A stretch of DNA of 64,000 nucleotides, from assembly GCF_041886205.1 (NCBI RefSeq), contig NZ_CP169029.1. One strand, written 5' to 3'. Origin of the DNA: Escherichia coli. Lineage in GTDB: Bacteria; Pseudomonadota; Gammaproteobacteria; Enterobacterales; Enterobacteriaceae. This document shows positions 14,300 through 37,491 of the stretch, in pieces (positions within the stretch are counted from its first letter, which is position 1; every line of letters begins with the position of its first letter). The notes below the pieces were generated by a model that worked only from the letters and a program-made list of their open reading frames with translations, was not told the origin of the DNA and searched no databases. A program made the translations under genes and the position numbers.

Positions 14300-14378
14300 T
14301 ATCTGCGCTTATCCTTTATGGTTATTTTACCGGTAACATGATCTTGCACAGATTGTAGAACAATTTTTACACTTTCAG

Positions 14379-14411: not shown

Positions 14412-14533
14412 ATTACACTGACTGAAACGTTTTTGCCCTATGAGCTCCGGTTACAGGCGTTTCACTCATAAATCCTCTGAATGAAACGCGTTGTGAATCA
14501 TCCTGCTCTGACAACTCAATTTCAGGAGCCTTT

Positions 14534-16345
14534 ATGAATCCACAATTGTTACGCGTAACAAATCGAATCATTGAACGTTCGCGCGAGACTCGCTCTGCTT
14601 ATCTCGCCCGGATAGAACAAGCGAAAACGTCGACCGTTCATCGTTCGCAGTTGGCATGCGGTAACCTGGCACACGGTTTCGCTGCCTGCCAGCCAGAAGA
14701 CAAAGCCTCTTTGAAAAGCATGTTGCGTAACAATATCGCCATCATCACCTCCTATAACGACATGCTCTCCGCTCACCAGCCTTATGAACACTATCCAGAA
14801 ATCATTCGTAAAGCCCTGCATGAAGCGAATGCGGTTGGTCAGGTTGCGGGCGGTGTTCCGGCGATGTGTGATGGTGTCACCCAGGGGCAGGATGGAATGG
14901 AATTGTCGCTGCTAAGCCGCGAAGTGATAGCGATGTCTGCGGCGGTCGGGCTGTCCCATAACATGTTTGATGGTGCTCTGTTCCTCGGGGTGTGCGACAA
15001 GATTGTCCCGGGTCTGACGATGGCAGCCCTGTCGTTTGGTCATTTGCCTGCGGTGTTTGTACCGTCTGGGCCGATGGCAAGCGGTTTGCCAAATAAAGAA
15101 AAAGTGCGTATTCGCCAGCTTTATGCCGAAGGTAAAGTGGACCGCATGGCCCTACTGGAGTCAGAAGCCGCGTCTTATCATGCGCCGGGAACATGTACTT
15201 TCTACGGTACTGCCAACACCAACCAGATGGTGGTGGAGTTTATGGGGATGCAGTTGCCAGGCTCTTCTTTTGTTCATCCGGACTCTCCGCTGCGCGATGC
15301 TTTGACCGCTGCCGCTGCGCGTCAGGTTACACGCATGACCGGTAATGGTAATGAATGGATGCCGATCGGTAAGATGATCGATGAGAAAGTGGTGGTGAAC
15401 GGTATTGTTGCACTGCTGGCGACCGGTGGTTCCACTAACCACACCATGCACCTGGTGGCGATGGCGCGCGCGGCCGGTATTCAGATTAACTGGGATGACT
15501 TCTCTGACCTTTCTGATGTTGTACCGCTGATGGCACGTCTCTACCCGAACGGTCCGGCCGATATTAACCACTTCCAGGCGGCAGGTGGCGTACCGGTTCT
15601 GGTGCGTGAACTGCTCAAAGCAGGTCTGCTGCATGAAGATGTCAATACGGTGGCAGGCTTTGGTCTGTCTCGTTATACGCTTGAACCATGGCTGAATAAT
15701 GGTGAACTGGACTGGCGGGAAGGGGCGGAAAAATCACTCGACGGCAATGTGATCGCTTCCTTCGAACAACCTTTCTCTCATCATGGTGGGACAAAAGTGT
15801 TAAGCGGTAACCTGGGCCGTGCGGTTATGAAAACCTCTGCCGTGCCGGTTGAGAACCAGGTGATTGAAGCGCCAGCGGTTGTTTTTGAAAGCCAGCATGA
15901 CGTTATGCCGGCCTTTGAAGCGGGTTTGCTGGACCGCGATTGTGTCGTTGTTGTCCGTCATCAGGGGCCAAAAGCGAACGGAATGCCAGAATTACATAAA
16001 CTCATGCCGCCACTTGGTGTATTATTGGACCGGTGTTTCAAAATTGCGTTAGTTACCGATGGACGACTCTCCGGCGCTTCAGGTAAAGTGCCGTCAGCTA
16101 TCCACGTAACACCAGAAGCCTACGATGGCGGGCTGCTGGCAAAAGTGCGCGACGGGGACATCATTCGTGTGAATGGACAGACAGGCGAACTGACGCTGCT
16201 GGTAGACGAAGCGGAACTGGCTGCTCGCGAACCGCACATTCCTGACCTGAGCGCGTCACGCGTGGGAACAGGACGTGAATTATTCAGCGCCTTGCGTGAA
16301 AAACTGTCCGGTGCCGAACAGGGCGCAACCTGTATCACTTTTTAA
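14534..16345 (+). CDS. edd: phosphogluconate dehydratase (Entner-Doudoroff)
   Basis: 603 aa ORF of the IlvD/Edd family; followed by eda. Confidence 0.97.
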
Positions 16346-16381
16346 GACGACAAATTTGTAATCAGGCGAGAGAAAACTCTG

Positions 16382-17023
16382 ATGAAAAACTGGAAAACAA
16401 GTGCAGAATCAATCCTGACCACCGGCCCGGTTGTACCGGTTATCGTGGTAAAAAAACTGGAACACGCGGTGCCGATGGCAAAAGCGTTGGTTGCTGGTGG
16501 GGTGCGCGTTCTGGAAGTGACTCTGCGTACCGAGTGTGCAGTTGACGCTATCCGTGCTATCGCCAAAGAAGTGCCTGAAGCGATTGTGGGTGCCGGTACG
16601 GTGCTGAATCCACAGCAGCTGGCAGAAGTCACTGAAGCGGGTGCACAGTTCGCAATTAGCCCGGGTCTGACCGAGCCGCTGCTGAAAGCTGCTACCGAAG
16701 GGACTATTCCTCTGATTCCGGGGATCAGCACTGTTTCCGAACTGATGCTGGGTATGGACTACGGTTTGAAAGAGTTCAAATTCTTCCCGGCTGAAGCTAA
16801 CGGCGGCGTGAAAGCCCTGCAGGCGATCGCGGGTCCGTTCTCCCAGGTCCGTTTCTGCCCGACGGGTGGTATTTCTCCGGCTAACTACCGTGACTACCTG
16901 GCGCTGAAAAGCGTGCTGTGCATCGGTGGTTCCTGGCTGGTTCCGGCAGATGCGCTGGAAGCGGGCGATTACGACCGCATTACTAAGCTGGCGCGTGAAG
17001 CTGTAGAAGGCGCTAAGCTGTAA
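16382..17023 (+). CDS. eda: KHG/KDPG aldolase
   Basis: 213 aa ORF with the Eda sequence. Confidence 0.97.
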
Positions 17024-17027
17024 AAGT

Positions 17028-17058
17028 CAAAATGCCCGATCGAGGATCGGGCATTTTT
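17028..17058. terminator. bidirectional terminator between eda and purT
   Basis: ATGCCCGATC-GAG-GATCGGGCAT hairpin flanked by A- and T-runs. Confidence 0.7.
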
Positions 17059-17078
17059 GTAGCGTTTTTTTGCCGGGT

Positions 17079-18257
17079 TTAACCCTGTACTTTTACCTGT
17101 CCGGCGGCGTGCTTCGCGCGTTCAATGGCGTCAACAACACTCTCAGCGGTCGCCAGCGCAACACCCAGACGACGGCTGCCATCAATTTCCGGCTTACCAA
17201 ATAAACGAATCTGCAAATCTGCGCCTACGGCATTCTGCACATTATCAAACGTGACATTCTGACTGGTCAGTTGTGGCAGAATAACGGCAGAAGCTGCAGG
17301 ACCATACTGACGGATCCCGCCAACCGGAAGTCCGAGGAAGGCACGTACATGCAGGGCAAACTCTGAGAGATCTTGAGAAATTAACGTCACCATCCCGGTA
17401 TCATGTGGACGAGGGGAGACCTCACTGAAAATCACCTCATCACCACAGACAAATAGCTCGACACCAAACAACCCATAACCGCCCAGTGCCAGCACCACTT
17501 TACGGGCAATCTCCTGCGCACGTTCAAGGGCAAGCGGGCTCATTTGCTGTGGTTGCCAGGATTCACGGTAGTCGCCATCTTCCTGGCGATGACCTACCGG
17601 TGCACAGAAATGGACGCCATCCACCGCGCTGACGGTTAGCAAGGTAATTTCGAAGTCAAACTTAACGACGCCTTCAACAATTACGCGGCCCGCTCCGGCG
17701 CGACCGCCTTGCTGAGCGTACTTCCATGCCTGAGCAAGTTGCTCTGCAGAACGAATAAACGTCTGCCCCTTGCCGGAAGAGCTCATCACCGGTTTTACAA
17801 TGCAGGGATAGCCAATGTCAGCAACCGCCTCGCGGAAAAGGCTTTCGCTATCGGCAAAACGATAAGTGGAAGTGGGCAGCTGCAGCTCTTCTGCCGCCAG
17901 GCGACGGATACCCTCGCGATTCATCGTTAATTTCGTTGCGCGAGCGCAGGGGACAACATTCAGTCCTTCCTCTTCAAGTTGGATCAGCATATCGGTGGCA
18001 ATAGCTTCGATCTCCGGCACGATATAATGTGGTTTTTCCAGTTCAACCACACGGCGTAATGCATCACCATCAAGCATATTAATGATATGGGAGCGATGCG
18101 CGACATGCATGGCTGGTGCGTCGGCATAGCGATCGACGGCAATCACCTCTACGCCGAGACGCTGACACTCGATTGCCACTTCTTTACCCAGTTCACCGGA
18201 GCCTAATAACATCACGCGAGTTGCTGCCGGACGCAGCGCAGTGCCTAATAACGTCAT
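17079..18257 (-). CDS. purT: formate-dependent GAR transformylase
   Basis: 392 aa ATP-grasp ORF matching PurT. Confidence 0.97.
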
Positions 18258-18294
18258 AACGAATATCCCCTGATTAATTCCGCGCGCAGTATAA

Positions 18295-18310
18295 ACGAAA
18301 ACGTTTGCGC
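18295..18310 (-). promoter_or_regulatory. PurR box upstream of purT
   Basis: ACGAAAACGTTTGCGC, close to the PurR palindrome ACGCAAACGTTTTCGT. Confidence 0.6.
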
Positions 18311-18355
18311 GTGTCTTTATTGCTGATGTTGATTTCTCAACCGAAAAGAAATATA

Positions 18356-18371
18356 CTGTATAAAATCACAG
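18356..18371 (+). promoter_or_regulatory. LexA (SOS) box upstream of yebG
   Basis: CTGTATAAAATCACAG, a near-consensus CTGT-N8-ACAG site about 20 bp upstream of yebG. Confidence 0.75.
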
Positions 18372-18390
18372 TTATTATGAGAGGCTGCAA

Positions 18391-18681
18391 ATGGCGGTTG
18401 AAGTTAAATACGTAGTCATTCGTGAGGGCGAAGAGAAAATGTCGTTTACCAGCAAAAAGGAAGCCGATGCTTATGATAAAATGCTTGATACGGCGGATCT
18501 GCTTGACACCTGGCTGACAAATTCTCCAGTGCAAATGGAAGACGAGCAACGTGAAGCCCTTTCGCTATGGCTGGCAGAACAAAAAGATGTGCTGAGCACC
18601 ATTCTGAAAACCGGCAAATTACCGTCCCCACAGGTCGTCGGTGCTGAATCCGAAGAGGAAGATGCCTCACACGCGGCCTGA
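18391..18681 (+). CDS. yebG: SOS-inducible protein YebG
   Basis: 96 aa ORF directly downstream of a LexA box. Confidence 0.9.
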   Translation: MAVEVKYVVIREGEEKMSFTSKKEADAYDKMLDTADLLDTWLTNSPVQMEDEQREALSLWLAEQKDVLSTILKTGKLPSPQVVGAESEEEDASHAA

Positions 18682-18699
18682 AGCAACTTGCGCTCCTGA

Positions 18700-19104
<405 letters not shown>

Positions 19105-19179
19105 TGGCTTCTGATAATTCGATTGACCGTTGGCGGATGCGGCGCGAGTGCCTTGTCCGCCCCAGAACGCACCACAATC

Positions 19180-19213
19180 GTAGGCCTGAGAAGACGCAAC
19201 AGCGTCGCATCGG
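19180..19213. repeat. REP element
   Basis: Minus-strand reading GCCCGATGCGACGCTGTTGCGTCTTCTCAGGCCTAC matches the REP consensus. Confidence 0.55.
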
Positions 19214-19430
19214 GCAATCAGCATCAAACAATGCCACTCAAAACGACAAACTACTTTCACCTAAAATACCCTTATCACCTGATATACAGTAAATACCTTA
19301 CCTGGCGCGAATTTCTTTGAATAACGGCCTACCGCCCCGCTTATTTGCGCATCTTTTGTCTCGATATACATTTTCTGACATCCTCATCCGCTATGCTACA
19401 GGCACTAAAAATGGTTATTGAGGAGCAAAT

Positions 19431-20090
19431 ATGGCTAACTGGTTAAATCAACTGCAATCCCTGCTTGGGCAAAGCAGTTCTTCTACCTCCTCGTCTGCGG
19501 ATCAGGGATTGGGCAAACTGTTAGTGCCAGGCGCATTAGGCGGACTGGCTGGGCTGCTGGTCGCAAATAAATCAGCACGTAAACTTCTTACGAAATATGG
19601 CACCAACGCGTTACTGGTTGGCGGCGGAGCGGTAGCGGGTACGGTGCTGTGGAATAAATACAAAGATAAAATTCGCGCGGCGCATCAGGACGAACCGCAG
19701 TTTGGCGCGCAAAGTACGCCGCTGGATGAGCGTACAGAACGTTTGATCCTTGCGCTGGTCTTTGCCGCTAAAAGTGATGGTCATATTGATGCCAAAGAAC
19801 GTGCGGCAATCGACCAGCAATTGCGTGAAGCCGGCGTGGAAGAGCAGGGGCGTGTACTCATTGAGCAGGCAATCGAACAACCGCTGGATCCACAACGCCT
19901 GGCTACCGGGGTCCGCAATGAAGAAGAGGCGCTGGAAATCTATTTCCTGAGTTGCGCGGCTATTGATATTGACCATTTTATGGAACGCAGTTACCTGAAT
20001 GCACTGGGTGACGCGCTGAAAATCCCCCAGGATGTTCGTGACGGCATTGAACGCGATCTCGAACAGCAAAAACGCACTTTGGCGGAATAA
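19431..20090 (+). CDS. yebE: inner membrane protein YebE (DUF533)
   Basis: 219 aa ORF; synteny between yebF and ptrB. Confidence 0.88.
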
Positions 20091-20271
20091 TTCCGCTCTC
20101 TGGATAGCCTGAAGTTGACTATTTCGGGCTATCCAGAATCGCACAGCCATTTGAACAGGCTGATTTTCTCTGTCTGCATAACATTCGATATCCGCGCCAT
20201 TACCTGTCATCATCTAAGCAATGACTCCCCTGTTTCGCTTGCATCCCCGGTGAGTTTTGCCACCCTTATAA

Positions 20272-23018
<2,747 letters not shown>

Positions 23019-23041
23019 GGCATGCTCCAGGCCGAAAAAGC

Positions 23042-23698
23042 CTAGCGTAATGGAATGATATCGCCTTGCCAACCCTGTGATGAACGCTGACCGACTAACA
23101 ATAATGAACCACGATCGGCGCGAACGATGAGACGACCATGTTCATCCCATAGTGCACTGTTACCACGGGCATTTGCCATCAGCACGGCAATGGAGTACTG
23201 ATGTGAAAAAAATTGTAAGCGGCGGGTAGATGCCAGTAGGTCGGGTTCCCCCAGACATTGCCCTGTCGTAAACAGTGAACAGGTCGGGTCCATATCCATA
23301 CCTTGCGGTTGTTCATCTACCACCGTGATGGTTCTGGAACGACGGCCCAGACATGCACCATGACTCTGATGGTAGATCCCCGGCGTTTTTCGCCACGGTG
23401 CGAACACCGCAATTCCACGAATAAAGCGATCGTTATATTCAACGGGAAGGCCGGCAATGATGGTCATTCGCCAGGTCGTTGCGGCATAACAAAGCGGGTC
23501 TAACAGTGAGAGATCGGGTGGGGCAGGAAGGGCACGTCGCGAATAATCACACCCCAGTAAAGAAAGCGATGGAAAAACTAACAGCTGACATTGTTGCCTG
23601 GCGGCGGCCCTCACAAACTCCAGATGATGAGCTACCTGTTCGGTGAGTGAGGTTTTACGAGGCTCATATTGCGCTGCTGCAACTTTCCAGAACGACAT
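23042..23698 (-). CDS. yobB: carbon-nitrogen hydrolase family protein YobB
   Basis: 218 aa ORF between exoX and holE. Confidence 0.85.
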   Translation of the reverse strand: MSFWKVAAAQYEPRKTSLTEQVAHHLEFVRAAARQQCQLLVFPSLSLLGCDYSRRALPAPPDLSLLDPLCYAATTWRMTIIAGLPVEYNDRFIRGIAVFAPWRKTPGIYHQSHGACLGRRSRTITVVDEQPQGMDMDPTCSLFTTGQCLGEPDLLASTRRLQFFSHQYSIAVLMANARGNSALWDEHGRLIVRADRGSLLLVGQRSSQGWQGDIIPLR

Positions 23699-23799
23699 AA
23701 TGACTTCCTTTTCAAAATGACTGCAAATTATGGGTGCAGTTTAGAAAATACTCATAATTTAGCAGGCGTTATGTAAGAAAGTGTAACTCTGTATAAGTT

Positions 23800-24030
23800 T
23801 TATTTAAGTTTGGGCTCGTAAGGTAAACGTGACAGATTGACCGAAGCCAAACGGTGGGCAATAAGCCGCTCGCGAAACCAGCTGCGCAAATGTTCAGGCT
23901 GTTCACGTTCAACCGCTTCAGCGATCACCGGCATATTGTAGCGTTCTTTAAATGCCACCCCGGCCGCCGCCAAATCGACATTCACTTTATCCATTTCTGT
24001 TTGATCCAGTTTAGCCAGATTCTTCAGCAT
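23800..24030 (-). CDS. holE: DNA polymerase III theta subunit
   Basis: Start set at [31 protein letters not shown] (76 aa). Confidence 0.9.
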
Positions 24031-24168
24031 TCTTAATCTCCTCATCATTCGCGGGCAAAAGTTACTAAGAGTGAGCCTGGATGGCAAGCCGGAATTGATG
24101 ATCCTCGACTCAGACATTAGACAAGGTTATGCTCTGTAAAAAAGTTATTACAAAAAGGAATAGATAAT

Positions 24169-24543
24169 ATGGCTTCAACTGCACGCTCCCTTCGCTACGC
24201 GCTGGCAATCATGACCACTTCGTTGGTGACACCTTCCGTCTGGGCACATGCGCATTTAATGCATCAGTATCCTGCGGCAAACGCGCAAGTGACAGCATCT
24301 CCGCAGGCAATCACTTTAAACTTCTCGGAAGGCGTTGAAACAGGATTCAGTGGTGCAAAAATCACGGGGCCAAAAAACGAAAATATTAAAACATTACCGG
24401 CGAAGCGAAATGAGCAGGACCAAAAGCAACTGATTGTTCCACTGGCCGATTCGCTGAAACCCGGAACCTACACCGTTGACTGGCATGTTGTTTCGGTGGA
24501 CGGGCATAAAACGAAAGGACACTACACCTTTAGCGTGAAATAA
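24169..24543 (+). CDS. yobA: CopC-family periplasmic copper-binding protein
   Basis: 124 aa, signal peptide, CopC-like; followed by the CopD-like yebZ. Confidence 0.9.
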   Translation: MASTARSLRYALAIMTTSLVTPSVWAHAHLMHQYPAANAQVTASPQAITLNFSEGVETGFSGAKITGPKNENIKTLPAKRNEQDQKQLIVPLADSLKPGTYTVDWHVVSVDGHKTKGHYTFSVK

Positions 24544-24546
24544 ATC

Positions 24547-25419
24547 ATGCTGGCGTTTACCTGGATCGCGCTGCGATTTATCCATTTCACCTCGCTGATG
24601 CTGGTTTTTGGCTTCGCAATGTACGGTGCCTGGCTGGCCCCCTTAACGATTCGTCGTTTGCTGGCGAAGCGTTTTCTGCGTTTACAACAGCACGCTGCCG
24701 TCTGGAGTTTGATCAGTGCCACTGCAATGCTCGCCGTTCAGGGCGGGTTGATGGGAACGGGATGGAAAGATGTATTTTCGCCAAACATTTGGCAGGCTGT
24801 TTTGCAAACGCAGTTTGGTGGCGTCTGGTTATGGCAAATTGTTCTCGCCCTCGTAACGTTGATCGTCGCCCTTATGCAACCGCGGAATATGCCACGTTTG
24901 CTGTTTATGCTCACTACCGCGCAATTTATTCTGCTGGCGGGAGTGGGGCATGCGACGCTGAATGAAGGGGTAACGGCGAAAATCCATCAGACTAATCACG
25001 CGATTCACCTGATTTGTGCGGCGGCGTGGTTTGGGGGATTACTGCCGGTGCTCTGGTGTATGCAACTCATCAAAGGCCGTTGGCGACACCAGGCTATTCA
25101 GGCGCTGATGCGTTTTTCCTGGTGCGGGCATTTTGCGGTGATCGGCGTACTGGCAAGCGGCGTGCTTAATGCATTGTTGATTACCGGATTTCCCCCCACG
25201 ATTACGACTTACTGGGGCCAACTCTTATTGCTCAAAGCCATCCTGGTGATGATTATGGTGGTCATTGCGCTGGCTAATCGTTATGTTCTTGTACCGCGCA
25301 TGAGGCAGGATGAAGATCGTGCGGCTCCCTGGTTTGTGTGGATGACTAAACTCGAATGGGCGATAGGTGCGGTAGTGCTGGTGATCATCAGCCTGCTTGC
25401 GACTCTCGAACCTTTTTGA
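24547..25419 (+). CDS. yebZ: CopD-family inner membrane protein
   Basis: 290 aa polytopic membrane ORF. Confidence 0.9.
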   Translation: MLAFTWIALRFIHFTSLMLVFGFAMYGAWLAPLTIRRLLAKRFLRLQQHAAVWSLISATAMLAVQGGLMGTGWKDVFSPNIWQAVLQTQFGGVWLWQIVLALVTLIVALMQPRNMPRLLFMLTTAQFILLAGVGHATLNEGVTAKIHQTNHAIHLICAAAWFGGLLPVLWCMQLIKGRWRHQAIQALMRFSWCGHFAVIGVLASGVLNALLITGFPPTITTYWGQLLLLKAILVMIMVVIALANRYVLVPRMRQDEDRAAPWFVWMTKLEWAIGAVVLVIISLLATLEPF

Positions 25420-25431
25420 TGGATTACGAAA

Positions 25432-25773
25432 ATGATGAAAAAAATTATTCTGGCGTTTCTGTTACTCACCAGTTCTGCAGCGGCGCTGGCTGCACCGCAG
25501 GTGATTACCGTCAGCCGTTTTGAAGTGGGTAAAGACAAATGGGCGTTTAATCGCGAAGAGGTGATGCTGACTTGCAGACCGGGTAATGCTTTGTATGTCA
25601 TTAACCCAAGTACCCTCGTGCAGTATCCTTTAAACGATATCGCACAGAAGGAAGTTGCCAGTGGGAAGACTAAAGCCCAACCCATTTCGGTGATTCAGAT
25701 TGATGATCCCAACAATCCCGGCGAAAAAATGAGTCTGGCACCGTTTATAGAACGAGCTGAAAAACTCTGTTAA
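25432..25773 (+). CDS. yebY: DUF2511 secreted protein YebY
   Basis: 113 aa with signal peptide; third gene of the yobA-yebZ-yebY cluster. Confidence 0.85.
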
Positions 25774-25802
25774 TTACCTAAAATAGCCTTTTGATTTCCA
25801 AT

Positions 25803-25845
25803 AAAAAAACCGCCTCAGTTCTTTCACCAGAACGGGCGGTTTTTA
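25803..25845. terminator. bidirectional terminator (yebY on plus, RyeA on minus)
   Basis: A-run, ACCGCC...GGCGGT stem, T-run. Confidence 0.55.
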
Positions 25846-26080
25846 ACATTTAAGCTGATGACCACCGCGCTTTTTATTGACCATTTTGCACGCAAACTGG
25901 AAAACCTGGCGTCGTCATCTATTCTTAAAGGGCAAGGCAACTAAGCCTGCATTAATGCCAACTTTTAGCGCACGGCTCTCTCCCAAGAGCCATTTCCCTG
26001 GACCGAATACAGGAATCGTGTTCGGTCTCTTTTTATCTGTTAAAAGCCAGAAGCATTTCCTTCGCTGACTTTATAGTCAA
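25806..26080 (-). ncRNA. ryeA: antisense sRNA RyeA (SraC), overlapping SdsR
   Basis: Known to be transcribed opposite SdsR at this locus; ends are inferred, not read from sequence. Confidence 0.45.
25932..26034 (+). ncRNA. sdsR: sRNA SdsR (RyeB)
   Basis: GCAAGGCAACTAAGCCTGCATTAATGCCAACTTTTAGCGCACGGCTCTCTCCCAAGAGCC...GGTCTCTTTTT matches the SdsR sequence I recall; sits in the yebY-pphA intergenic region as in K-12. Confidence 0.85.
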
Positions 26081-26165
26081 CCATAACACACACTCTACTG
26101 TCTGAGTCCAGCATTTTTTAACATTCTTGTTAAGATTATGTGATCTTTAGCGCGGGAGGAAAATA

Positions 26166-26825
26166 TTGATGAAACAGCCTGCGCCCGTTTATCAGAGAAT
26201 TGCGGGTCATCAATGGCGACATATCTGGCTTTCTGGCGATATACACGGTTGTCTTGAGCAGTTGCGCCGCAAATTATGGCATTGTCGTTTTGATCCGTGG
26301 CGAGATTTACTTATCTCAGTGGGAGACGTTATCGATCGTGGGCCGCAAAGTTTACGTTGTCTGCAGTTACTGGAACAACATTGGGTTCGTGCGGTAAGAG
26401 GCAATCATGAACAGATGGCGATGGATGCGCTGGCATCCCAGCAGATGTCTTTATGGTTGATGAATGGCGGCGACTGGTTTATTGCGCTGGCAGATAATCA
26501 ACAGAAACAAGCGAAAACGGCGCTGGGGAAATGTCAGCATTTGCCCTTTATTCTTGAAGTACACAGTCGCACCGGCAAGCATGTTATTGCTCATGCCGAT
26601 TATCCAGATGATGTTTATGAATGGCAAAAGGACGTCGATTTGCATCAGGTCTTGTGGAGCCGCTCGCGATTAAGTGAACGCCAAAAAGTGCAGGGAATTA
26701 CAGGTGCTGATCATTTCTGGTTTGGTCATACACCGTTGCGACATCGCGTGGATATTGGCAACCTGCATTATATTGATACCGGTGCTGTCTTTGGGGGCGA
26801 ACTGACTCTTGTGCAATTGCAATAA
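26166..26825 (+). CDS. pphA: serine/threonine protein phosphatase 1 (PPP family)
   Basis: 219 aa; metallophosphatase motifs GDIHG, GDVIDRG, GNHE. Confidence 0.92.
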   Translation: MMKQPAPVYQRIAGHQWRHIWLSGDIHGCLEQLRRKLWHCRFDPWRDLLISVGDVIDRGPQSLRCLQLLEQHWVRAVRGNHEQMAMDALASQQMSLWLMNGGDWFIALADNQQKQAKTALGKCQHLPFILEVHSRTGKHVIAHADYPDDVYEWQKDVDLHQVLWSRSRLSERQKVQGITGADHFWFGHTPLRHRVDIGNLHYIDTGAVFGGELTLVQLQ

Positions 26826-27017
26826 TTAAAAATCACCGTACTCCTGTGCAGGTCGCCAGAAACCATCTATAAAATCCTCAATCGGAAAACAACCGCCATG
26901 GCGGATCCGTTGATCGCTCATAGAATGAAGACACTGCTGTTCCGTGTTGTAGACATCCACAACAATATCTTCACAACCGCCATCCAGGTAGCAAACAAAA
27001 AGTACCAGCGCGAACAT
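26826..27017 (-). CDS. yebW: small protein YebW
   Basis: Start set at MFALVLFVCYLDGG (63 aa); track ORF extends upstream. Confidence 0.7.
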   Translation of the reverse strand: MFALVLFVCYLDGGCEDIVVDVYNTEQQCLHSMSDQRIRHGGCFPIEDFIDGFWRPAQEYGDF

Positions 27018-27121
27018 TTCATCCCCGAAGTGTGGTGCCGTACCGTTAAGTTTAGGAGAGATTTTACAACGGGGGAATAACCAGGACAAATAACCCGCCA
27101 TGCCGACGGGTTCTTTTTGGA

Positions 27122-27358
27122 TCAGGCAAGACGCATAATCCAGGCATCAGATTGTTGATCGTAACGGGTACGGTAAAGGACAGAGTGTTCGCCATTTAGC
27201 AGGGCAGGGATACTGGTTTCAGCATCCCAGGCATCCAGTTGCATACATAAATCGGGGTCAGATTTACAAGGAATGGTTAACGTTCGATCACCCGGCGATT
27301 CACCGTGTAATTCGCCGTCGTCGATTTCAAAAGCGCCTATGCGCACACTGGTTTTCAT
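27122..27358 (-). CDS. yebV: small protein YebV
   Basis: Start set at MKTSVRIGAFEIDDGE (78 aa). Confidence 0.78.
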   Translation of the reverse strand: MKTSVRIGAFEIDDGELHGESPGDRTLTIPCKSDPDLCMQLDAWDAETSIPALLNGEHSVLYRTRYDQQSDAWIMRLA

Positions 27359-27475
27359 CTTCGTGCTCTCCATTTAGCTGCCGATTGTGGTACGACCAGT
27401 CCGATCGCACCATTTTTCAGCCTAGTTGAGGCCGCCGAATGTGCCAGTCAAAAAGTGCGCTTTTTTTGTGCGCTG

Positions 27476-28915
27476 TCAGGCGTTACCGGTAAAAAGTTTC
27501 CCATCGCGCACCAGTTCACGCGGATAGCTGTTTTTCAATCGCGAACCAATCCGTTTGGCTAAACCAATCGGTTGATGCTGGAAAGTAACCAATACATCAT
27601 CCGCCACTGGCGCGGCTTGCGGGTAAACATCGCGCCCGCGATACCACTCCTCCGCTTCCTGCGGTGTCAGCTCGAATGCATTCATATTATCGGGTGAGGC
27701 AAGAGCAATAACCGCTTCATGCTGCCAGCGATAACCTTTGTTGTGCGTCTCGGCAAGTTTAATCCCCAACCGAGAAAATCGGACTTTACCGATCAGGGCT
27801 TCAATGCCCACCGGGAACAACCACAGTTCTTTGTCACGCTGCCAGAGGCGCAGGTTTTCATCCCAGTTTAAGCCAACACCTGCAGCCGCCTGCCGAATTT
27901 GTCCAGCTTCGCGATCTTTCACCGGGCTGAACGGAAAATTGCCCACTTTGTATGTTGGGGTGGGTAAGGCGGGAATGGCCTGAGTTTTACGCAGACGAGC
28001 AACGAAGAAGCCTTCGCAGTCGTAAATTTGTGGGAAAACATGCAAAAAGCCTTCTTCGGTCAGCGCTTTGTTTGCACCAGGGAAGAGCTCGCCAAGTGGT
28101 AAAAACTCTACTGCGTCAGGGTAAGTCTCTTTCAGCCACATGCAAACGGCTTCGTTTTCTTCCCTGTTTAAGGTACAGGTCGAGTAAACCAGCGTACCAC
28201 CAGGACGTAATGCATGAAAGGCGCTGTCGATAAGCTCCCGTTGTGTAGCTGCGATTTCCTGATTGCTTTCTGGTGACCAGTTTTTTAGCGCATCGGGATC
28301 TTTACGCACCACGCCTTCGCCAGAGCAGGGAGCGTCCAGCAAAATGGCATCGAACATTTCTGGCACTGCCACACCAAACACGCGGCCATCAAAATGTGTG
28401 AGCGCAACATTACTGATGCCACAGCGGCTGATATTGGCATGTAACACTTTTACCCGACTGGCGGAAAACTCATTGGCAAGGATTGCCCCTTCGTTATTCA
28501 TCCGCGCGGCAATTTGCGTCGTTTTGGAGCCAGGCGCAGCAGCGACATCCATCACCCGCTGTGGTGCATTACCGTCAGCAAACAAGGCAGCAACGGGCAA
28601 CATTGAACTGGCTTCCTGAATATAAAACAGGCCGCTTAAATGCTCGGCGGTACTACCCAATGGCAATGCATCTTCATTGTCGCGTTCAATCCAGAAACCT
28701 TCTTCACACCACGGAATTGGCGTAAGCGTCCAGCCATAAGGAGCGGTTAATTGCAGGAAATCAGCAACGGAGATTTTCAGCGTATTAACGCGAATGCTGC
28801 GGCGCAACGGGCGCTGACAGGCGGCAAGAAAATCATCAAAAGAGAGCGTCGAAGGCATCGCTTCGCGCATTTGCGTCAGAAAGGCGTCCGGGAAATAAAC
28901 GGTGTGTTGGGCCAC
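27476..28915 (-). CDS. rsmF: 16S rRNA m5C1407 methyltransferase
   Basis: About 479 aa SAM-dependent NOL1/NOP2/Sun-family ORF; GTG start after [10 protein letters not shown]. Confidence 0.93.
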
Positions 28916-28994
28916 GAGCATGTACCACTGGCAAAAAAACAGGCGCGCAGTTTAGCATAAACGCTCCGGCGCAGGCACGCCGGAGCAGTGGGCA

Positions 28995-31628
28995 TTATTT
29001 GGGAAGCGCAGTTCCCCATTCACGCCACTCTTTCGGTTCACTTTCCTGCAACAGGAAGTGTTTGCCTTCCTGGGCTTTCGGTGCCAGTGGCGTACCCGGA
29101 GGCGTGGCGAAGGCGATGCCGCCACGGATAAACTGGTTAAAGGTGCCGGTTTTCACTACGCCGCCCGTCAGACCAAAGTCCAGACTGTAACCCGATGCCA
29201 ACCAGAAGACGGAATTGTTACGCACCAGGTGTTGATAGCGTTTACTGATGCGCATCGCAATCATCACGCGATCTGACAATGTCCCCAGCGTCATTCCTGT
29301 AACCGTACCGACTTCCAGACCACGGAACAGCACAGGCGTACCGATGCCTAACGAACCGGCTTCCGGCGCTTCAACAATAATGCTTAAGCCATCCAGGTAA
29401 CGCGAATCAGTAATGGTGGCCTCTTGTAATTCAAAGTCGCGGCGAGGATTGCCCCGGCCTGGTTCGACGTTGATATACGGCTGGAGGATAGTATCAAGAT
29501 GCTCAACGCCAGCTGCCGAAATTTGCGGTGTGACCACTGAGAAGCGCGTACCACCGCGAGCAAAGGTCTGGACATATTCCGGATAGAGCACCGCCTTTGC
29601 CTGTACTTCATTGCGCGCGGTAATCAGATCCAGCGTCTGGATTTGCCCGATATCAATACCGAGATAGCGAATTGGCATCCCGACCGCCAGTTTTCCGGCA
29701 TCGAAAGCGTGAAGCGTAATCTGCCCACCAACCGCACGGGCCGCTGTTTCGGAAGCATACAGAATTCGTTTGTCGCCTTTACGCTGACTGGCGCTGGCAC
29801 CGCTGAGGTTATCGAAGCTAATGGCTCCCTTTAATGCTCTGGAGAGCGGGGATGCCTGTACGGTCAGGCCACTACCATTCAGCTGAACTTTCGCCCCGCC
29901 TTCTGCCCAGAACACGCTATTGCTGGTCAGAAGGTTGCGATACTCCGGCTTAATATGCAGATCGATATCAAACGCGTTAGCTCGCGGACGGACGGTAATA
30001 ACTTCACCAACTTCAAATTTACGGTAGAGCACTACCGATCCTGCCTGCACATCCGGCAGCGTCTCTGCACTCAAACTCACGGTTGTGGTGGGTAAATCGC
30101 TAAGGCTGTTCTCCAGCGCTTTTTCCAGATTGGCATACAGTGGATAGCTGGCTTTCATCTCGCCTTTATCGCCCGGCAGAATACGTATCCCGCCGTTAAT
30201 CCATTCTGAGGCGCTGGCACCGAGAAACTCAACGCCATCCAGCCCCACCTTCACGTCGACACGGCTGTTTACGACAAATTTGCTATCGCCTTTTACCAGT
30301 TCTCGATGCTGAGGCTCGATGGCGACGGTAAAGGTGACGCCTTTGCTGGTGAGTTTACGATCGATAACCTGGCCTACCTGCACGCCGTGAAGAATGAGCG
30401 GCTGACCCGCATCAATACCGTAACTTTCCGGCGCGGTCAGGGTCAGCGTCAGAACATCAGGTTCATGCAGCAGTGCTTTTTCGCCTGGCACAACAACGAA
30501 CTCTTTGCGTGGCTCGCCATCGCCGGGTACCAACTCGAAGGTTTTGCCAGTCAGCAGGGCGCTGAGATTGGCATCGCTAAGGGATAATTTCGGGTTGCGT
30601 AATTCGATGCGGGTATTTTCCCGTAACAGCGTAACGACGCTGGGATCAACGGTCATTTCCCCAGTGACTTTACCACCAGGATTTAAATCCAGTTTAGTCA
30701 GCTGTCCGACTTCCAGCCCCTGATACATTAACGGCGTCGAGTCGGCGGTTAATCCGGCCCCACTCGGCAGTTCCAGTTTTATTATTACGCCACGCTGGCT
30801 GTGGGCCAGATCTTCATACAGACCAAAGGTATCTTCCGCCTCGGCAGGTTTCGACTCTTCAGGTGAATCGAAGGCAATCGCACCGTTAACCAGTGCCGCC
30901 AGACTTTCCAGTTTCACCTTCGCGCCACTGATACTGACGTTGGCATCAACGCCGGAAACGTTCCAGAAACGGCTACCTTTTTTCACCAGGTCGGTAAAAC
31001 GCCGCTCGATCAGGACATCAATCACCACGCCTTGTTTATTGGGATTGATGGCATAGTCGTAGACTTTACCCACCGGGATCTTGCGGAAATAGACCAATGA
31101 ACCGCTGTTCAGCGAACCGAGATCGGGAGCTTGCAGGTGGATCATCAGATCGCCATTGTCCAGCCGATATTTCGGTTGGGTATCGAGTGCGACAAAGTGA
31201 TCCTGCTCTTTACCTTTACCCGGCATCATGCCGATATAGTTCCCACCGACGAGGGCGTCCAGCCCGGAGACACCTGCCAACGATGCTTTTGGCGTCACCA
31301 GCCAGAATTGAGTCTCTTCGCGCAGCGCATCTTTCATATCGGACTTGATGCTGACCTTGACTTCAATCTTACGAAGATCGTCGCTGAGGCTGATATCCTG
31401 CACTGTTCCGACTTCAACGCCCTGATAACGAACAGGCGTACGGCCCGGGACAATACCATCCGCCGACATAAAGTCGATGGTGACGGTATTACCCCGGTCC
31501 TGATAACTGTCCCAAATCAGCCAACCGGCAATCATTAGCGCGATGAAAGGCAGCAGCCAGAAAGGTGAGATACGGCGTTTATTTTTAATCTGCGCTTCAG
31601 TCGTCGAAGCGGGCGTTTCCTGACTCAT
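28995..31628 (-). CDS. letB: MCE-domain lipophilic envelope-spanning tunnel protein
   Basis: Start set at [19 protein letters not shown] (877 aa); multiple tandem MCE domains; overlaps letA. Confidence 0.93.
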
Positions 31629-32880
31629 GTGCATCCCAAAGTAAGCGGCTGTCCAGCCATTCCACAGCAAGAATAGTCAAAATTACCGCTGCGCCGAAAT
31701 AAAACGCAGCCGGTCCCATAGTAAAAGCGAGGATCTGATCGCGATTAATCAGCGACATGGTTAAAGATATGACAAACAGGTCGAGCATCGACCAGCGACC
31801 AATCCAGGTCACCATCCGCAGTAACAGAATGCGTGTGCGTAAACCTTGCTGGCATTTAAAATGAATGCTCAACAGTAAAGTGAACATGACGATCACTTTA
31901 GTAAACGGTACCAGAATACTGGCGATAAACACGATTCCCGCAACCGCAATGTTGCTACTTGCCAGCGACATAATTCCGGAAAGAATTGTATCTTCCTGCC
32001 GTCCTCCGTTCAGATAAATGATAGAAATAGGCAACAGGTTGGCAGGTAACAACAAAACGATTGACGCTAACAGCGCCGCCCAGCATTTTTGCAAACTATG
32101 ACGGCGACGCAGGCGTAGCGGGATATGGCAACGCGGGCAGCGACCACGCTGATCAGGATAGCCGGTAAAATGGCACCCAAGACAGACACGGAGTTTCTCG
32201 TCCCTACGCGTAGCGGGGCGCTGCGGATAAAATCGCTCCCACAGCTCCTCGACATTAAGATGTGACAACGTCACCGTCGTTAAAATCACCAACGCCACAA
32301 AAGAGAACAAGCCCACACCCGCCTGGATATGGGCATAATCCTGTACCTTTATAGAAGCAACGCCAATGCCGACCAGGTAGATATCCAGCATTACCCACTC
32401 TTTAAGTCGCTCAAGCATCAGCAGTACCGGGCGTAGATTCATTCCCAGTCGGTTACCAAACCATAAATAAGCTATGGAGGTCACCAGAATGAGGGGGGCA
32501 CCGATAACGCAGAAAAAGACCATCGACCCCGTTATCGCATCGCCCTGTTTGGTCATTTGCCAGATGCCTTGCATAACGTTGGCGTCAATACGAATGCCTA
32601 ACAGCCAGATATGCAACAGCGGTTCGCCCCAGGCAAACGGCATCAGCAACAGCATGGTGAAAGCCATTGCCGCCAGGCGCGTTAGCGACCAGTCGCGCCC
32701 GTCGCGAATTTTTGCCTGACAGCGCGGACAATAGGCACTCTGATGAGAATTTATCTCGGGCAGGCTAAACAGCATGTCACATTGCGGGCAACGTTGGTAA
32801 TCACCACGCGGCAGTTCCTCGCCGATTGACATCACTGTTATCTTTTTTGTCGGCGTAATCTGTGGTGTGTTAAGAGCCAT
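31597..32880 (-). CDS. letA: PqiA-family inner membrane protein
   Basis: 427 aa with CxxC pairs and duplicated PqiA-like membrane domains; 32 bp overlap with letB. Confidence 0.93.
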
Positions 32881-33009
32881 GACGTGCCAAATGTAATAAG
32901 AATTAACATTAATATTAACCCATGATTGGAATGATCTTGAGCATTAACGCATTTAATGCTTATTTTAATAGGCTGGCAGTTCCAGGTAAGACAACCAAGT
33001 GATTATATA

Positions 33010-33507
33010 ATGAACAAAACAGAATTTTACGCGGATTTAAATCGCGACTTTAACGCGCTGATGGCGGGAGAAACCAGTTTTCTGGCAACGCTTGCGAACA
33101 CCAGTGCGTTGTTATACGAGCGTCTCACTGACGTAAACTGGGCAGGTTTTTATTTGCTTGAGGACGATACACTGGTACTCGGACCATTTCAGGGCAAAAT
33201 TGCCTGTGTCCGGATACCCGTCGGGCGCGGGGTGTGCGGCACTGCGGTTGCCCGCAATCAAGTGCAGCGTATCGAGGATGTTCACGCGTTTGACGGGCAT
33301 ATTGCCTGTGATGCGGCGAGTAATTCTGAAATTGTTCTGCCGCTGGTGGTGAAAAATCAGATTATTGGTGTTCTTGACATCGATAGTACCGTCTTCGGTC
33401 GCTTTACAGACGAGGACGAGCAAGGCTTACGTCAGCTTGTGGCACAGCTTGAAAAAGTGCTTGCAACGACGGATTACAAAAAATTCTTTGCGAGCGTCGC
33501 AGGATAA
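33010..33507 (+). CDS. msrC: free methionine-(R)-sulfoxide reductase (GAF domain)
   Basis: Start set at MNKTEFYADLNRDF (165 aa). Confidence 0.9.
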   Translation: MNKTEFYADLNRDFNALMAGETSFLATLANTSALLYERLTDVNWAGFYLLEDDTLVLGPFQGKIACVRIPVGRGVCGTAVARNQVQRIEDVHAFDGHIACDAASNSEIVLPLVVKNQIIGVLDIDSTVFGRFTDEDEQGLRQLVAQLEKVLATTDYKKFFASVAG

Positions 33508-33603
33508 TCAACGGATAACGTAGCATTTACTGGTAGCGTCATTATAATGACGCCTGTTCATGCCTGCGCTTGTTGGCTACGTCCGTTGTAATCAGGAAAT
33601 TTC

Positions 33604-34302
33604 ATGGAAAATCAACCTAAGTTGAATAGCAGTAAAGAAGTAATCGCGTTTCTGGCCGAACGTTTTCCCCACTGTTTCAGTGCGGAAGGTGAAGCGCGTC
33701 CGCTGAAAATCGGTATTTTTCAGGATTTGGTCGATCGTGTTGCCGGGGAAATGAACCTGAGCAAAACGCAATTACGATCCGCTTTACGTCTCTACACTTC
33801 GAGCTGGCGTTATCTTTACGGTGTTAAACCCGGCGCAACGCGTGTCGATCTTGACGGCAACCCATGCGGTGAGCTGGACGAGCAACATGTAGAGCATGCT
33901 CGCAAGCAGCTTGAAGAAGCGAAAGCGCGTGTTCAGGCACAGCGTGCTGAACAGCAAGCGAAAAAACGCGAAGCTGCCGCAGCTGCTGGTGAGAAAGAAG
34001 ACGCACCGCGCCGCGAACGCAAGCCACGTCCGACCACGCCACGCCGCAAAGAAGGCGCTGAACGTAAACCTCGTGCGCAAAAGCCGGTAGAGAAAGCGCC
34101 AAAAACAGTAAAAGCACCTCGCGAAGAACAGCACACCCCGGTTTCTGACATTTCAGCTCTGACTGTCGGACAAGCCCTGAAGGTGAAAGCGGGTCAAAAC
34201 GCGATGGATGCCACCGTATTAGAAATCACCAAAGACGGCGTCCGCGTCCAGCTGAATTCGGGTATGTCTTTGATTGTGCGCGCAGAACACCTGGTGTTCT
34301 GA
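33604..34302 (+). CDS. proQ: RNA chaperone ProQ
   Basis: 232 aa; FinO-like N-terminus and Lys/Arg/Glu-rich linker. Confidence 0.95.
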
Positions 34303-34321
34303 AACGGAGGCCGGGCCAGGC

Positions 34322-36370
34322 ATGAACATGTTTTTTAGGCTTACCGCGTTAGCTGGCCTGCTTGCAATAGCAGGCCAGACCTTCGCTGTAGAAGATATCA
34401 CGCGTGCTGATCAAATTCCGGTATTAAAGGAAGAGACGCAGCATGCGACGGTAAGTGAGCGCGTAACGTCGCGCTTCACCCGTTCTCATTATCGCCAGTT
34501 CGACCTCGATCAGGCATTTTCGGCCAAAATCTTTGACCGCTACCTGAATCTGCTCGATTACAGCCACAATGTGCTGCTGGCAAGCGATGTTGAACAGTTC
34601 GCGAAAAAGAAAACCGAGTTAGGCGATGAATTGCGTTCAGGCAAACTCGACGTTTTCTACGATCTCTACAATCTGGCGCAAAAGCGCCGTTTTGAACGTT
34701 ACCAGTACGCTTTGTCGGTACTGGAAAAGCCGATGGATTTCACCGGCAACGACACTTATAACCTTGACCGCAGCAAAGCGCCCTGGCCGAAAAACGAGGC
34801 TGAGTTGAACGCGCTGTGGGACAGTAAAGTCAAATTCGACGAGTTAAGCCTGAAGCTGGCAGGAAAAACGGATAAAGAAATTCGTGAAACCCTGACACGC
34901 CGCTACAAATTTGCCATTCGTCGTCTGGCGCAAACCAACAGCGAAGATGTTTTCTCGCTGGCAATGACGGCGTTTGCGCGTGAAATCGACCCGCATACCA
35001 ACTATCTTTCCCCGCGTAATACCGAACAGTTCAACACTGAAATGAGTTTGTCGCTGGAAGGTATTGGCGCAGTGCTGCAAATGGATGATGACTACACCGT
35101 TATCAATTCGATGGTGGCAGGTGGTCCGGCAGCGAAGAGTAAAGCTATCAGCGTTGGTGACAAAATTGTCGGTGTTGGTCAAACAGGCAAGCCGATGGTT
35201 GACGTGATTGGCTGGCGTCTTGATGATGTGGTTGCCTTAATTAAAGGGCCGAAGGGCAGTAAAGTTCGTCTGGAAATTTTACCTGCTGGTAAAGGGACCA
35301 AGACCCGCACTGTAACATTGACCCGTGAACGTATTCGTCTCGAAGACCGCGCGGTTAAAATGTCGGTGAAGACCGTCGGTAAAGAGAAAGTCGGCGTGCT
35401 GGATATTCCGGGCTTCTATGTGGGTTTGACAGACGATGTCAAAGTTCAACTGCAGAAACTGGAAAAACAGAATGTCAGCAGTGTGATCATCGACCTGCGT
35501 AGCAATGGCGGTGGGGCGTTGACCGAAGCGGTATCGCTCTCCGGTCTGTTTATTCCTGCGGGTCCCATTGTTCAGGTCCGCGATAACAACGGCAAGGTTC
35601 GTGAAGACAGCGATACCGACGGGCAGGTGTTCTTTAAAGGCCCGCTGGTGGTACTGGTTGACCGTTTCAGTGCTTCGGCTTCAGAAATCTTTGCCGCGGC
35701 AATGCAGGATTACGGTCGTGCGCTGGTTGTTGGTGAACCGACGTTTGGTAAAGGCACCGTTCAGCAATACCGTTCATTGAACCGTATTTACGATCAGATG
35801 TTACGTCCTGAATGGCCAGCGCTGGGTTCTGTGCAGTACACGATCCAGAAATTCTATCGCGTTAACGGCGGCAGTACGCAACGTAAAGGCGTAACGCCAG
35901 ACATCATCATGCCGACGGGTAATGAAGAAACGGAAACGGGTGAGAAATTCGAAGATAACGCGCTGCCGTGGGATAGCATTGATGCCGCGACTTATGTGAA
36001 ATCAGGCGATTTAACGGCCTTTGGGCCGGAGCTGCTGAAGGAACATAATGCGCGTATCGCGAAAGATCCTGAGTTCCAGAACATCATGAAGGATATCGCG
36101 CGCTTCAACGCTATGAAGGACAAGCGCAATATCGTTTCTCTGAACTACGCTGTGCGTGAGAAAGAGAATAATGAAGATGATGCGACGCGTCTGGCGCGTT
36201 TGAACGAACGCTTTAAACGCGAAGGTAAACCGGAGTTGAAGAAGCTGGATGATCTACCGAAAGATTACCAGGAGCCGGATCCTTATCTGGATGAGACGGT
36301 GAATATCGCACTCGATCTGGCGAAGCTTGAAAAAGCCAGACCCGCGGAACAACCCGCTCCCGTCAAGTAA
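34322..36370 (+). CDS. prc: tail-specific protease (C-terminal processing peptidase)
   Basis: Start set at MNMFFRLTALAGLLAIAGQTFA (682 aa); directly downstream of proQ. Confidence 0.95.
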   Translation: MNMFFRLTALAGLLAIAGQTFAVEDITRADQIPVLKEETQHATVSERVTSRFTRSHYRQFDLDQAFSAKIFDRYLNLLDYSHNVLLASDVEQFAKKKTELGDELRSGKLDVFYDLYNLAQKRRFERYQYALSVLEKPMDFTGNDTYNLDRSKAPWPKNEAELNALWDSKVKFDELSLKLAGKTDKEIRETLTRRYKFAIRRLAQTNSEDVFSLAMTAFAREIDPHTNYLSPRNTEQFNTEMSLSLEGIGAVLQMDDDYTVINSMVAGGPAAKSKAISVGDKIVGVGQTGKPMVDVIGWRLDDVVALIKGPKGSKVRLEILPAGKGTKTRTVTLTRERIRLEDRAVKMSVKTVGKEKVGVLDIPGFYVGLTDDVKVQLQKLEKQNVSSVIIDLRSNGGGALTEAVSLSGLFIPAGPIVQVRDNNGKVREDSDTDGQVFFKGPLVVLVDRFSASASEIFAAAMQDYGRALVVGEPTFGKGTVQQYRSLNRIYDQMLRPEWPALGSVQYTIQKFYRVNGGSTQRKGVTPDIIMPTGNEETETGEKFEDNALPWDSIDAATYVKSGDLTAFGPELLKEHNARIAKDPEFQNIMKDIARFNAMKDKRNIVSLNYAVREKENNEDDATRLARLNERFKREGKPELKKLDDLPKDYQEPDPYLDETVNIALDLAKLEKARPAEQPAPVK

Positions 36371-36376
36371 TATCAA

Positions 36377-36406
36377 TCAGGCACAAGAAATTGTGCCTGA
36401 TTTTTT
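36377..36406 (+). terminator. intrinsic terminator after prc
   Basis: TCAGGCACAA-GAAA-TTGTGCCTGA followed by TTTTTT. Confidence 0.75.
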
Positions 36407-36561
36407 AACAGCGGCAAGATGCCGTAAATCAGATGCTACAAAATGTAAAGTTGTGTCTTTCTGGTGACTTACGCACTATCCAGACTTGAAAATAGTCGCG
36501 TAACCCATACGATGTGGGTATCGCATATTGCGTTTTGTTAAACTGAGGTAAAAAGAAAATT

Positions 36562-37443
36562 ATGATGCGAATCGCGCTCTTCCTGCTAACGAACCTGGCC
36601 GTAATGGTCGTTTTCGGGCTGGTACTGAGCCTGACAGGGATACAGTCGAGCAGCGTTCAGGGGCTGATGATCATGGCCTTGCTGTTCGGTTTTGGTGGTT
36701 CCTTCGTTTCGCTTCTGATGTCCAAATGGATGGCATTACGATCTGTTGGCGGGGAAGTGATCGAGCAACCGCGTAACGAAAGGGAACGTTGGCTGGTCAA
36801 TACTGTAGCAACCCAGGCTCGTCAGGCAGGGATCGCTATGCCGCAAGTGGCTATCTACCATGCGCCGGACATCAACGCTTTTGCAACCGGTGCGCGCCGT
36901 GATGCCTCTCTGGTTGCTGTCAGCACCGGTTTGCTGCAGAACATGAGCCCGGATGAAGCCGAGGCGGTAATTGCTCACGAAATCAGCCACATCGCCAATG
37001 GTGATATGGTTACCATGACGCTGATTCAGGGCGTGGTGAACACCTTCGTTATCTTTATTTCCCGTATTCTGGCGCAGCTTGCCGCGGGTTTTATGGGCGG
37101 AAATCGTGATGAAGGTGAAGAGAGCAACGGCAACCCGCTGATCTACTTTGCGGTTGCAACGGTTCTGGAACTGGTGTTTGGTATTCTGGCGAGCATTATC
37201 ACCATGTGGTTCTCGCGTCATCGTGAATTCCATGCTGATGCCGGTTCGGCAAAACTGGTTGGTCGCGAGAAAATGATTGCCGCGCTGCAGCGCCTGAAAA
37301 CCAGCTATGAACCGCAAGAAGCAACCAGCATGATGGCTTTCTGCATTAACGGTAAGTCGAAATCGCTCAGTGAGTTGTTCATGACTCACCCGCCGCTGGA
37401 TAAACGAATTGAAGCTCTGCGTACGGGTGAATACCTGAAGTAA
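36562..37443 (+). CDS. htpX: membrane zinc metalloprotease HtpX
   Basis: 293 aa; HEISH zinc motif. Confidence 0.96.
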
Positions 37444-37458
37444 TATGAAGTAAATACT

Positions 37459-37491
37459 AAAAAGCGCGTCCTGATCGACGCGCTTTTTTTA
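37459..37491. terminator. bidirectional terminator between htpX and yebQ
   Basis: AAAAAGCGCGTC-loop-GACGCGCTTTTTTT. Confidence 0.75.

Follow-up and report, generated by a model that had tools for sequence, protein, structure and literature searches.

The closest described systems are the sdsR/ryeA locus of Escherichia coli K-12 and its Salmonella counterpart sdsR/sraC, in which two overlapping small RNAs are encoded, one on each strand. SdsR associates with Hfq and represses targets in trans; those reported are tolC, yhcB, and mutS in E. coli and ompD in Salmonella (PMC6610125, PMC3333887). SdsR is missing from rpoS mutants, and in vitro E-sigma-S transcribes sdsR and E-sigma-70 transcribes ryeA (PMC6610125, PMC3333887). 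The sigma-S layout of sdsR promoters comprises a C at –13, an A/T-rich discriminator, and a 16-bp spacer (PMC3333887). In K-12, exchange of TATTCT for CTCGAG (primer PM_SdsRR) abolished SdsR, and the same replacement of ACCATA (primer PM_RyeAF; + strand, 26080..26085 in the DNA analysed here) abolished RyeA (PMC6610125). Regulation between the two RNAs is reciprocal in K-12, as demonstrated by mutual degradation and by the –10 mutants, and overexpression of either RNA accelerates decay of its partner (PMC6610125). The locus is also the top RNase III-cleaved double-stranded RNA cluster in stationary phase (PMC7373196).

Three further aspects of the described systems bear on what follows. In K-12, ryeA transcription reduces sdsR promoter output through transcriptional interference (PMC6610125), and most K-12 pphA mRNA comes from the sdsR promoter via read-through of the sdsR terminator (PMC6610125). 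The importance of RyeA is disputed: its effect on SdsR is ~1.5-fold, and SraC has been considered non-essential (PMC3333887). Finally, the locus has been labelled a toxin–antitoxin pair in which both partners are RNA (SdsR the toxin, RyeA the antitoxin; Choi et al.), with SdsR toxicity seen on overexpression and acting via yhcB repression (PMC6610125); this label is a literature claim and is not relied on here.

The window (the whole 64,000-nucleotide stretch that was analysed) is E. coli chromosome, collinear with K-12 MG1655 over 1..55083 at 99% identity, and curated MG1655 features were transferred to it by gapless mapping. The region considered here is almost certainly the canonical E. coli sdsR/ryeA (ryeB/sraC) bidirectional small-RNA locus, working as in the K-12 model. 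It is described biology with nothing novel, intact and essentially the K-12 allele. Its features are as follows.

25432..25773, + strand: yebY coding sequence from the list of open reading frames, mapping to MG1655 b1839; the upstream flank
25805..25844, both strands: two-way intrinsic terminator hairpin, ending yebY (+) and RyeA (–)
25898..25903, + strand: sdsR –35 box TGGAAA, read from the sequence, with a 16-bp spacer to the –10; identical to MG1655
25919..25928, + strand: sdsR sigma-S-type extended –10, with C(–13) at 25919, TATTCT at 25920..25925, then TAA
25931..26034, + strand: SdsR (RyeB) small RNA, 104 nt as annotated; 104/104 identical to MG1655 sdsR b4433
26000..26034, + strand: SdsR Rho-independent terminator, stem 26000..26028 of 11 pairs, then CUUUUU; from terminator scan and fold
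26012..26034: phage attachment site, the last 23 bp of sdsR; unoccupied in the window
26072..25801, – strand: RyeA (SraC), 272 nt, antisense over all of sdsR; 270/272 identical to MG1655 ryeA b4432
26080..26088, – strand: ryeA sigma-70 extended –10, TGT TATGGT, at –16..–8 relative to the start at 26072; identical to MG1655
26169..26825, + strand: pphA coding sequence, mapping to MG1655 b1838; the downstream flank

Compared with MG1655 (b4433/b4432), the flanking genes and their relative orientation are the same, and the –10 boxes, the start-site context, and both terminators are identical. Only three positions differ from K-12 across the intergenic spacer 25774..26165, none of them inside SdsR, either –10 box, or either terminator: 25852 (C>A) and 25867 (A>G) both fall in the 3′ tail of RyeA, beyond the stretch that overlaps SdsR, and 26113 (G>A on the + strand) corresponds to –41 of the ryeA promoter. 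The last of these sits just upstream of a CTGGAC/A-tract region conserved in other Enterobacteriaceae. The exact spacer sequence of the window recurs in many E. coli strains, and a 421-bp stretch around the locus is 100% identical in many complete E. coli genomes. The locus itself was found in 5425 of 5426 complete E. coli genomes, with SdsR at least 99% identical in 5208 of them. A preliminary description had placed the RNA pair between yebY and pphA, which the mapped positions of both genes bear out; its outer limits, 25806..26080, mark the right locus but fall 5 and 8 nt away from the annotated RyeA ends at 25801 and 26072. The mechanical list of open reading frames begins pphA at an upstream TTG, 26166.

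The same description had read SdsR on the plus strand at 25932..26034 with a terminator of its own, and both points hold. Primer extension and 5′ RACE placed the start of transcription at 25932 (PMC6610125), the second nucleotide of the annotated gene, and 26034 is the annotated end; mapped 3′ ends at +100..+102 correspond to 26031..26033 of the window (PMC6610125). SdsR thus lies directly downstream of yebY (yebY end 25773, SdsR start 25932). By both terminator scan and folding, the hairpin at 26000..26028 is intact and carries no disrupting substitution; the single U·G wobble in it, between 26008 and 26020, is a standard pair that K-12 has as well. Folding of the full RNA gives three hairpins (5′, middle, and terminator), at –34.8 kcal/mol with a z-score of –4.05 against shuffled sequences. 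Upstream, the promoter matches the sigma-S-type layout, with C at –13, TATTCT, an A/T discriminator, and a 16-bp spacer. A scan of the whole window with Rfam at the gathering threshold gave three matches, two of them at this locus, so that the covariance-model check suggested for the pair returned significant matches to both models. The SdsR_RyeB model (RF00111) matches 25935..26034 (+) over its full length (1–100) with 114.4 bits (GA 38, E=1.8e-21), and the SraC_RyeA model (RF00101) matches 26038..25894 (–) over its full length (1–145) with 175.1 bits (GA 37, E=2.9e-40). Given 100% sequence identity to its K-12 counterpart, we infer that SdsR would here depend on RpoS, be expressed in stationary phase, bind Hfq, and repress in trans.

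RyeA requires separate treatment, as the match to its Rfam model says little. That model spans little beyond the reverse complement of SdsR, and it also matches the Shewanella and Paraglaciecola copies of SdsR (described below), read on the reverse strand, at 47–53 bits, above gathering. A RyeA match is therefore near-automatic wherever SdsR exists, and we rejected it as independent evidence for RyeA. The independent evidence for RyeA is instead its intact –10 box, defined by experiment in K-12, together with the sequence around its 5′ end and the terminator it shares with yebY, none of which differs from K-12. The extended –10, TGTTATGGT at 26088..26080 (–), is separated by 7 nt from the RNA 5′ end (26072), and the minus-strand sequence running up to this position reads ...GTGTGTGTTATGGTTGACTAT|AAAGTCAGCG. 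Three start sites have been mapped for RyeA, the most downstream of which is 26072 (PMC6610125), and its 3′ ends at +261..+270 correspond to 25812..25803 (PMC6610125). The hairpin at 25805..25844 is stable whichever strand is folded, with –19.8 kcal/mol (z –6.3) for the plus strand and –20.2 kcal/mol (z –4.6) for the minus strand. With an A-run at one flank and a T-run at the other, it would terminate yebY too. On the minus strand it is followed by a U-run, giving a RyeA of ~270 nt that holds the full SdsR complement and folds stably, better than shuffled sequences. This placement (26072..25801 on the minus strand, 270/272 identical to K-12) agrees with the earlier statement that RyeA crosses SdsR on the opposite strand.

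A simple consensus promoter scan recovered neither known promoter, and its single match, at 25757..25784, fits no mapped start site. This miss is expected for a sigma-S promoter and for an extended –10 promoter with a weak –35; the sdsR and ryeA promoters were located through the published mutagenesis primers. Similarly, the terminator scan missed the two-way yebY/RyeA hairpin because of a bulge in its stem, and direct folding recovered it.

To place the locus in a wider context, a 23-base SdsR core pattern was searched in species-representative genomes, giving at least 120 loci. Those listed belong to Enterobacteriaceae, Yersinia, Serratia, Rahnella, Dickeya, Brenneria, Hafnia, Sodalis, and others. 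Among them, SdsR is almost invariant from ~+26 to the terminator, with the columns 25966..25979 and 25986..25994 invariant by construction, being fixed by the search pattern, and a –10 of the CTAYNCTTAA type is kept across genera. The proposed SdsR fold is likewise conserved: among 96 distinct Enterobacterales sequences listed, 93.3% of cells are paired, compared to 20–44% when the partners are slid by 1–3 columns. In the same 96 sequences, the terminator helix is paired in 100% of cells, and three of its pairs show compensatory changes. Such changes occur in the 5′ hairpin too, where 74% of cells are paired, a value lowered by MAFFT misaligning indels in this part; the middle helix is uninformative for covariation because the search pattern fixes it. 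Nearly all listed Enterobacterales loci with enough flank have a homologue of yebY as the gene immediately upstream of the SdsR core. Among the listed loci, Escherichia, some Citrobacter, and a few other genera are the only ones with pphA within ~300 nt downstream of sdsR. Both the yebY linkage and the restricted pphA linkage agree with Frohlich et al. 2012 (PMC3333887).

The antisense side was examined through leftward promoter motifs downstream of sdsR, which occur in 49 of the 114 listed loci with enough flank, compared to 13 of 2280 shuffles (0.6%). Two types were distinguished: type A, as in the window, is the reverse complement of AACCATAACA followed by GTCCAG and a T-run, and type B, as in Salmonella, is the reverse complement of TTATACCACA. 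From this frequency, antisense transcription across sdsR looks widespread in Enterobacteriaceae, with a mobile promoter, in agreement with reported variation of sraC promoter elements (PMC3333887). In many genera the sdsR 3′ end occurs again as a partial copy (..TATTCGGTCTTTT..) 60–100 nt downstream of sdsR, for example in E. albertii (L006), Salmonella arizonae (L068), Yersinia (L003 and L114), and Serratia (L075). Two or three repeats of the type CCGAAA(T/A) stand ahead of this copy, and a leftward –10 lies just beyond it. These second copies look like scars of old attachment-site insertions. The E. coli window is without this block, and only 38 nt separate the SdsR end from the RyeA start.

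SdsR homologues were also observed outside Enterobacterales, in the Alteromonadales genera Shewanella (L029 9565..9667, L052 9745..9643, L065 2041..2143, and L109 4204..4103) and Paraglaciecola (L096 11011..11110). These copies have in common a core of UAGCGCACGGCUCU-loop-AGAGCCAUU and a terminator with compensatory changes, and those of Shewanella carry a sigma-S-like –10, CTACACTAA; neither yebY nor copD adjoins the Alteromonadales copies. The idea that the Shewanella and Paraglaciecola copies fall outside the known family was rejected, as the Rfam SdsR model scores them at 62–87 bits. Among the listed papers that name both SdsR and Shewanella, the mentions appear, by title and abstract, to be incidental.

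What the analysis itself establishes is the identity of the locus, its coordinates, the intactness of its promoter boxes and terminators, and its conservation, including covariation. Dependence on sigma factors, reciprocal degradation, transcriptional interference, and the supply of pphA by read-through would carry over from the K-12 and Salmonella experiments, and we infer the following sequence of events for the window on that basis. A sigma-S-type promoter would start SdsR at 25932 and the intrinsic terminator would end it at ~26031..26034, yielding a putative Hfq-binding, stationary-phase, trans-acting repressor. On the other strand, the sigma-70 extended –10 (TGTTATGGT) would start RyeA at 26072..26074; its transcript would cross all of sdsR plus the sdsR promoter and stop at ~25803..25812, at the hairpin held in common with yebY. 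Since the two RNAs are perfectly complementary over ~100 nt, they are expected to form a duplex subject to RNase III cleavage, each thereby lowering the other. Converging ryeA transcription may also interfere with the sdsR promoter. Together, duplex decay, interference, and sigma-factor choice would confine RyeA to exponential growth and SdsR to stationary phase. Partial read-through of the sdsR terminator would supply pphA mRNA, placing pphA expression in stationary phase. The notion of a mutually antagonistic pair, as put forward in the preliminary description, is thus likely to apply here, given reciprocal regulation in K-12 (PMC6610125) and the identity to K-12 of SdsR, both –10 boxes, and both terminators. 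Two roles of the locus that the description had left out are documented, namely the sdsR promoter driving pphA by read-through and the sdsR 3′ end serving as an attachment site.

How much weight RyeA deserves in this model is a matter of biological importance and not of locus identity. It is possible, if on the unlikely side, that SdsR alone is under selection, with RyeA a weakly selected or incidental antisense transcript whose drifting promoter has been repeatedly displaced by sdsR 3′-end insertions. Conservation of sraC is limited to the sdsR overlap, the position of its promoter varies, and its deletion shifts SdsR by just the ~1.5-fold noted above (PMC3333887); a ryeA –10 mutation changed 17 and 5 genes, compared to 171 and 55 in an sdsR mutant (PMC6610125). 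The flanks downstream of sdsR differ widely between genera, 51 of the 114 listed loci have no recognisable leftward –10 motif, and the Rfam RyeA model matches any SdsR in reverse. Against these points, however, a specific motif of type A or B is present in 49 of the 114 listed loci at a frequency far above the 13 of 2280 in shuffles, mutation of the ryeA –10 in K-12 led to earlier appearance of SdsR and higher pphA (PMC6610125), and the SdsR/RyeA duplex is the most abundant RNase III double-stranded RNA cluster in stationary phase (PMC7373196). The opposite possibility, that RyeA has a function beyond titrating SdsR, such as a trans role or a peptide encoded in its 3′ tail (e.g. the 38-aa frame 25940..25824), appears extremely unlikely, and nothing in this analysis points to a separate RyeA function. 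If RyeA did have one, the two tail SNPs and the –41 promoter SNP might modulate it.

Two other readings would shift the identity of the region away from the canonical sdsR/ryeA pair. Most K-12 pphA transcription does start at the sdsR promoter and proceed by read-through (PMC6610125), so that the region might be considered primarily a pphA promoter and leader, with SdsR as a terminated 5′ fragment of the pphA mRNA. This is very unlikely: most listed loci whose downstream flank is long enough do not have pphA as the next gene after sdsR, yet SdsR is nearly invariant throughout the listed Enterobacterales loci and recognisable in Shewanella, and it has trans targets (PMC6610125, PMC3333887). With SdsR conserved and pphA not its direct downstream neighbour in most of these loci, the pphA link reads as a lineage-specific add-on, complementary to the sdsR/ryeA explanation. 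We give almost no credence to a small protein encoded in the spacer, by either a 63-aa frame at 25877..26068 (+, TTG start) or the 38-aa frame at 25940..25824 (–), although both exist mechanically. Curated K-12 has no coding sequence between yebY and pphA, even though the small proteins yoaL and yobI are annotated elsewhere in the window. In addition, the frame through the SdsR core is not kept in other genera (stop-to-stop median 43.5 aa, range 13–171, compared to 68 here), and the core is invariant at every position (by construction in the pattern-fixed columns), which is typical of RNA and not of codon-wise conservation. Coding potential of the mechanical frames across SdsR was therefore rejected, the frame being unconserved and K-12 having no curated coding sequence. 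The earlier remark that no protein-coding frame accounts for the region is in keeping with this, as the spacer 25774..26168 has no annotated coding sequence in K-12 or in a 100%-identical RefSeq strain.

The 3′ end of sdsR has a further role as an integration target. According to PMC7380047, which cites Balbontin 2008, the attB of the Salmonella phage PhiW104 is the last 23 bp of ryeB. The equivalent site is empty here, where the window is collinear with MG1655. Across E. coli, the yebY–pphA spacer is interrupted in ~237 of 5425 genomes. In one such strain, 98E11 (L125, 6286 onward), a prophage begins right after the equivalent of window position ~26035 and encodes a tyrosine integrase, an excisionase, ralR, and recET. 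In another, FDAARGOS_944 (L126, 5249..5946), an IS1A is inserted at the equivalent of ~25941, splitting the promoter and first ~10 nt from the remainder of sdsR and leaving SdsR nt 11–104 beside pphA. FDAARGOS_944 looks like a natural sdsR promoter knock-out strain.

These observations have practical value for annotation and little weight for discovery, the locus being a textbook enterobacterial core small-RNA locus. All 12 of the RefSeq E. coli matches listed have no feature under sdsR, and the only features under the full spacer in the RefSeq records listed are yebY and pphA; both ncRNA features are present only in the curated K-12 record. As a result, the 395-bp spacer looks empty in the gene track, although two RNAs, a phage attachment site, and the promoter from which pphA is mainly transcribed all lie within it. 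With the locus intact and unoccupied in this strain, the K-12 regulatory model can be carried over with confidence.

Elsewhere in the window, two features were observed in passing. The segment 55084..62554 (~7.5 kb) is missing from K-12 MG1655, which has ~270 bp between yoaC and yoaB, and comprises a chaperone-usher fimbrial operon with an usher, a chaperone, four fimbrial subunits, and an adhesin of the StfH/YfcO family. A query of 54900..62700 was at least 80% covered in 311 of 5426 complete E. coli genomes, with a best match of 99.4% identity. An Rfam match to the cspA thermoregulator model was also obtained at 41525..41985 (+), with 132.9 bits against a gathering score of 78. Collinearity with MG1655 places it in the yobF–cspC region, so that what is matched is the leader and coding sequence of a cspA paralogue and not cspA.

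Beyond K-12, the locus also closely resembles Salmonella SdsR/SraC (PMC3333887), which is likewise linked to yebY and has the sigma-S promoter with C at –13, the same seed-containing core, and the same terminator; its two RNAs are also expressed inversely. For Salmonella arizonae (L068), the alignment extends over all of SdsR. The differences lie on the antisense side and downstream: the sraC –10 of Salmonella and Shigella is ~35 bp further upstream, giving a longer RNA than here (PMC3333887), the downstream gene in Salmonella differs from the pphA of the window (PMC3333887), and the Salmonella-type flank carries the other leftward –10 (reverse complement of TTATACCACA) together with the second partial copy of the sdsR 3′ end. 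More distantly, the pair resembles cis-encoded antagonist small RNAs and type I toxin–antitoxin systems in its fully complementary overlap, duplex formation, and RNase III cleavage. Unlike the toxin of a type I system, however, the SdsR ‘toxin’ is a trans-acting regulatory small RNA and not the mRNA of a toxic peptide.
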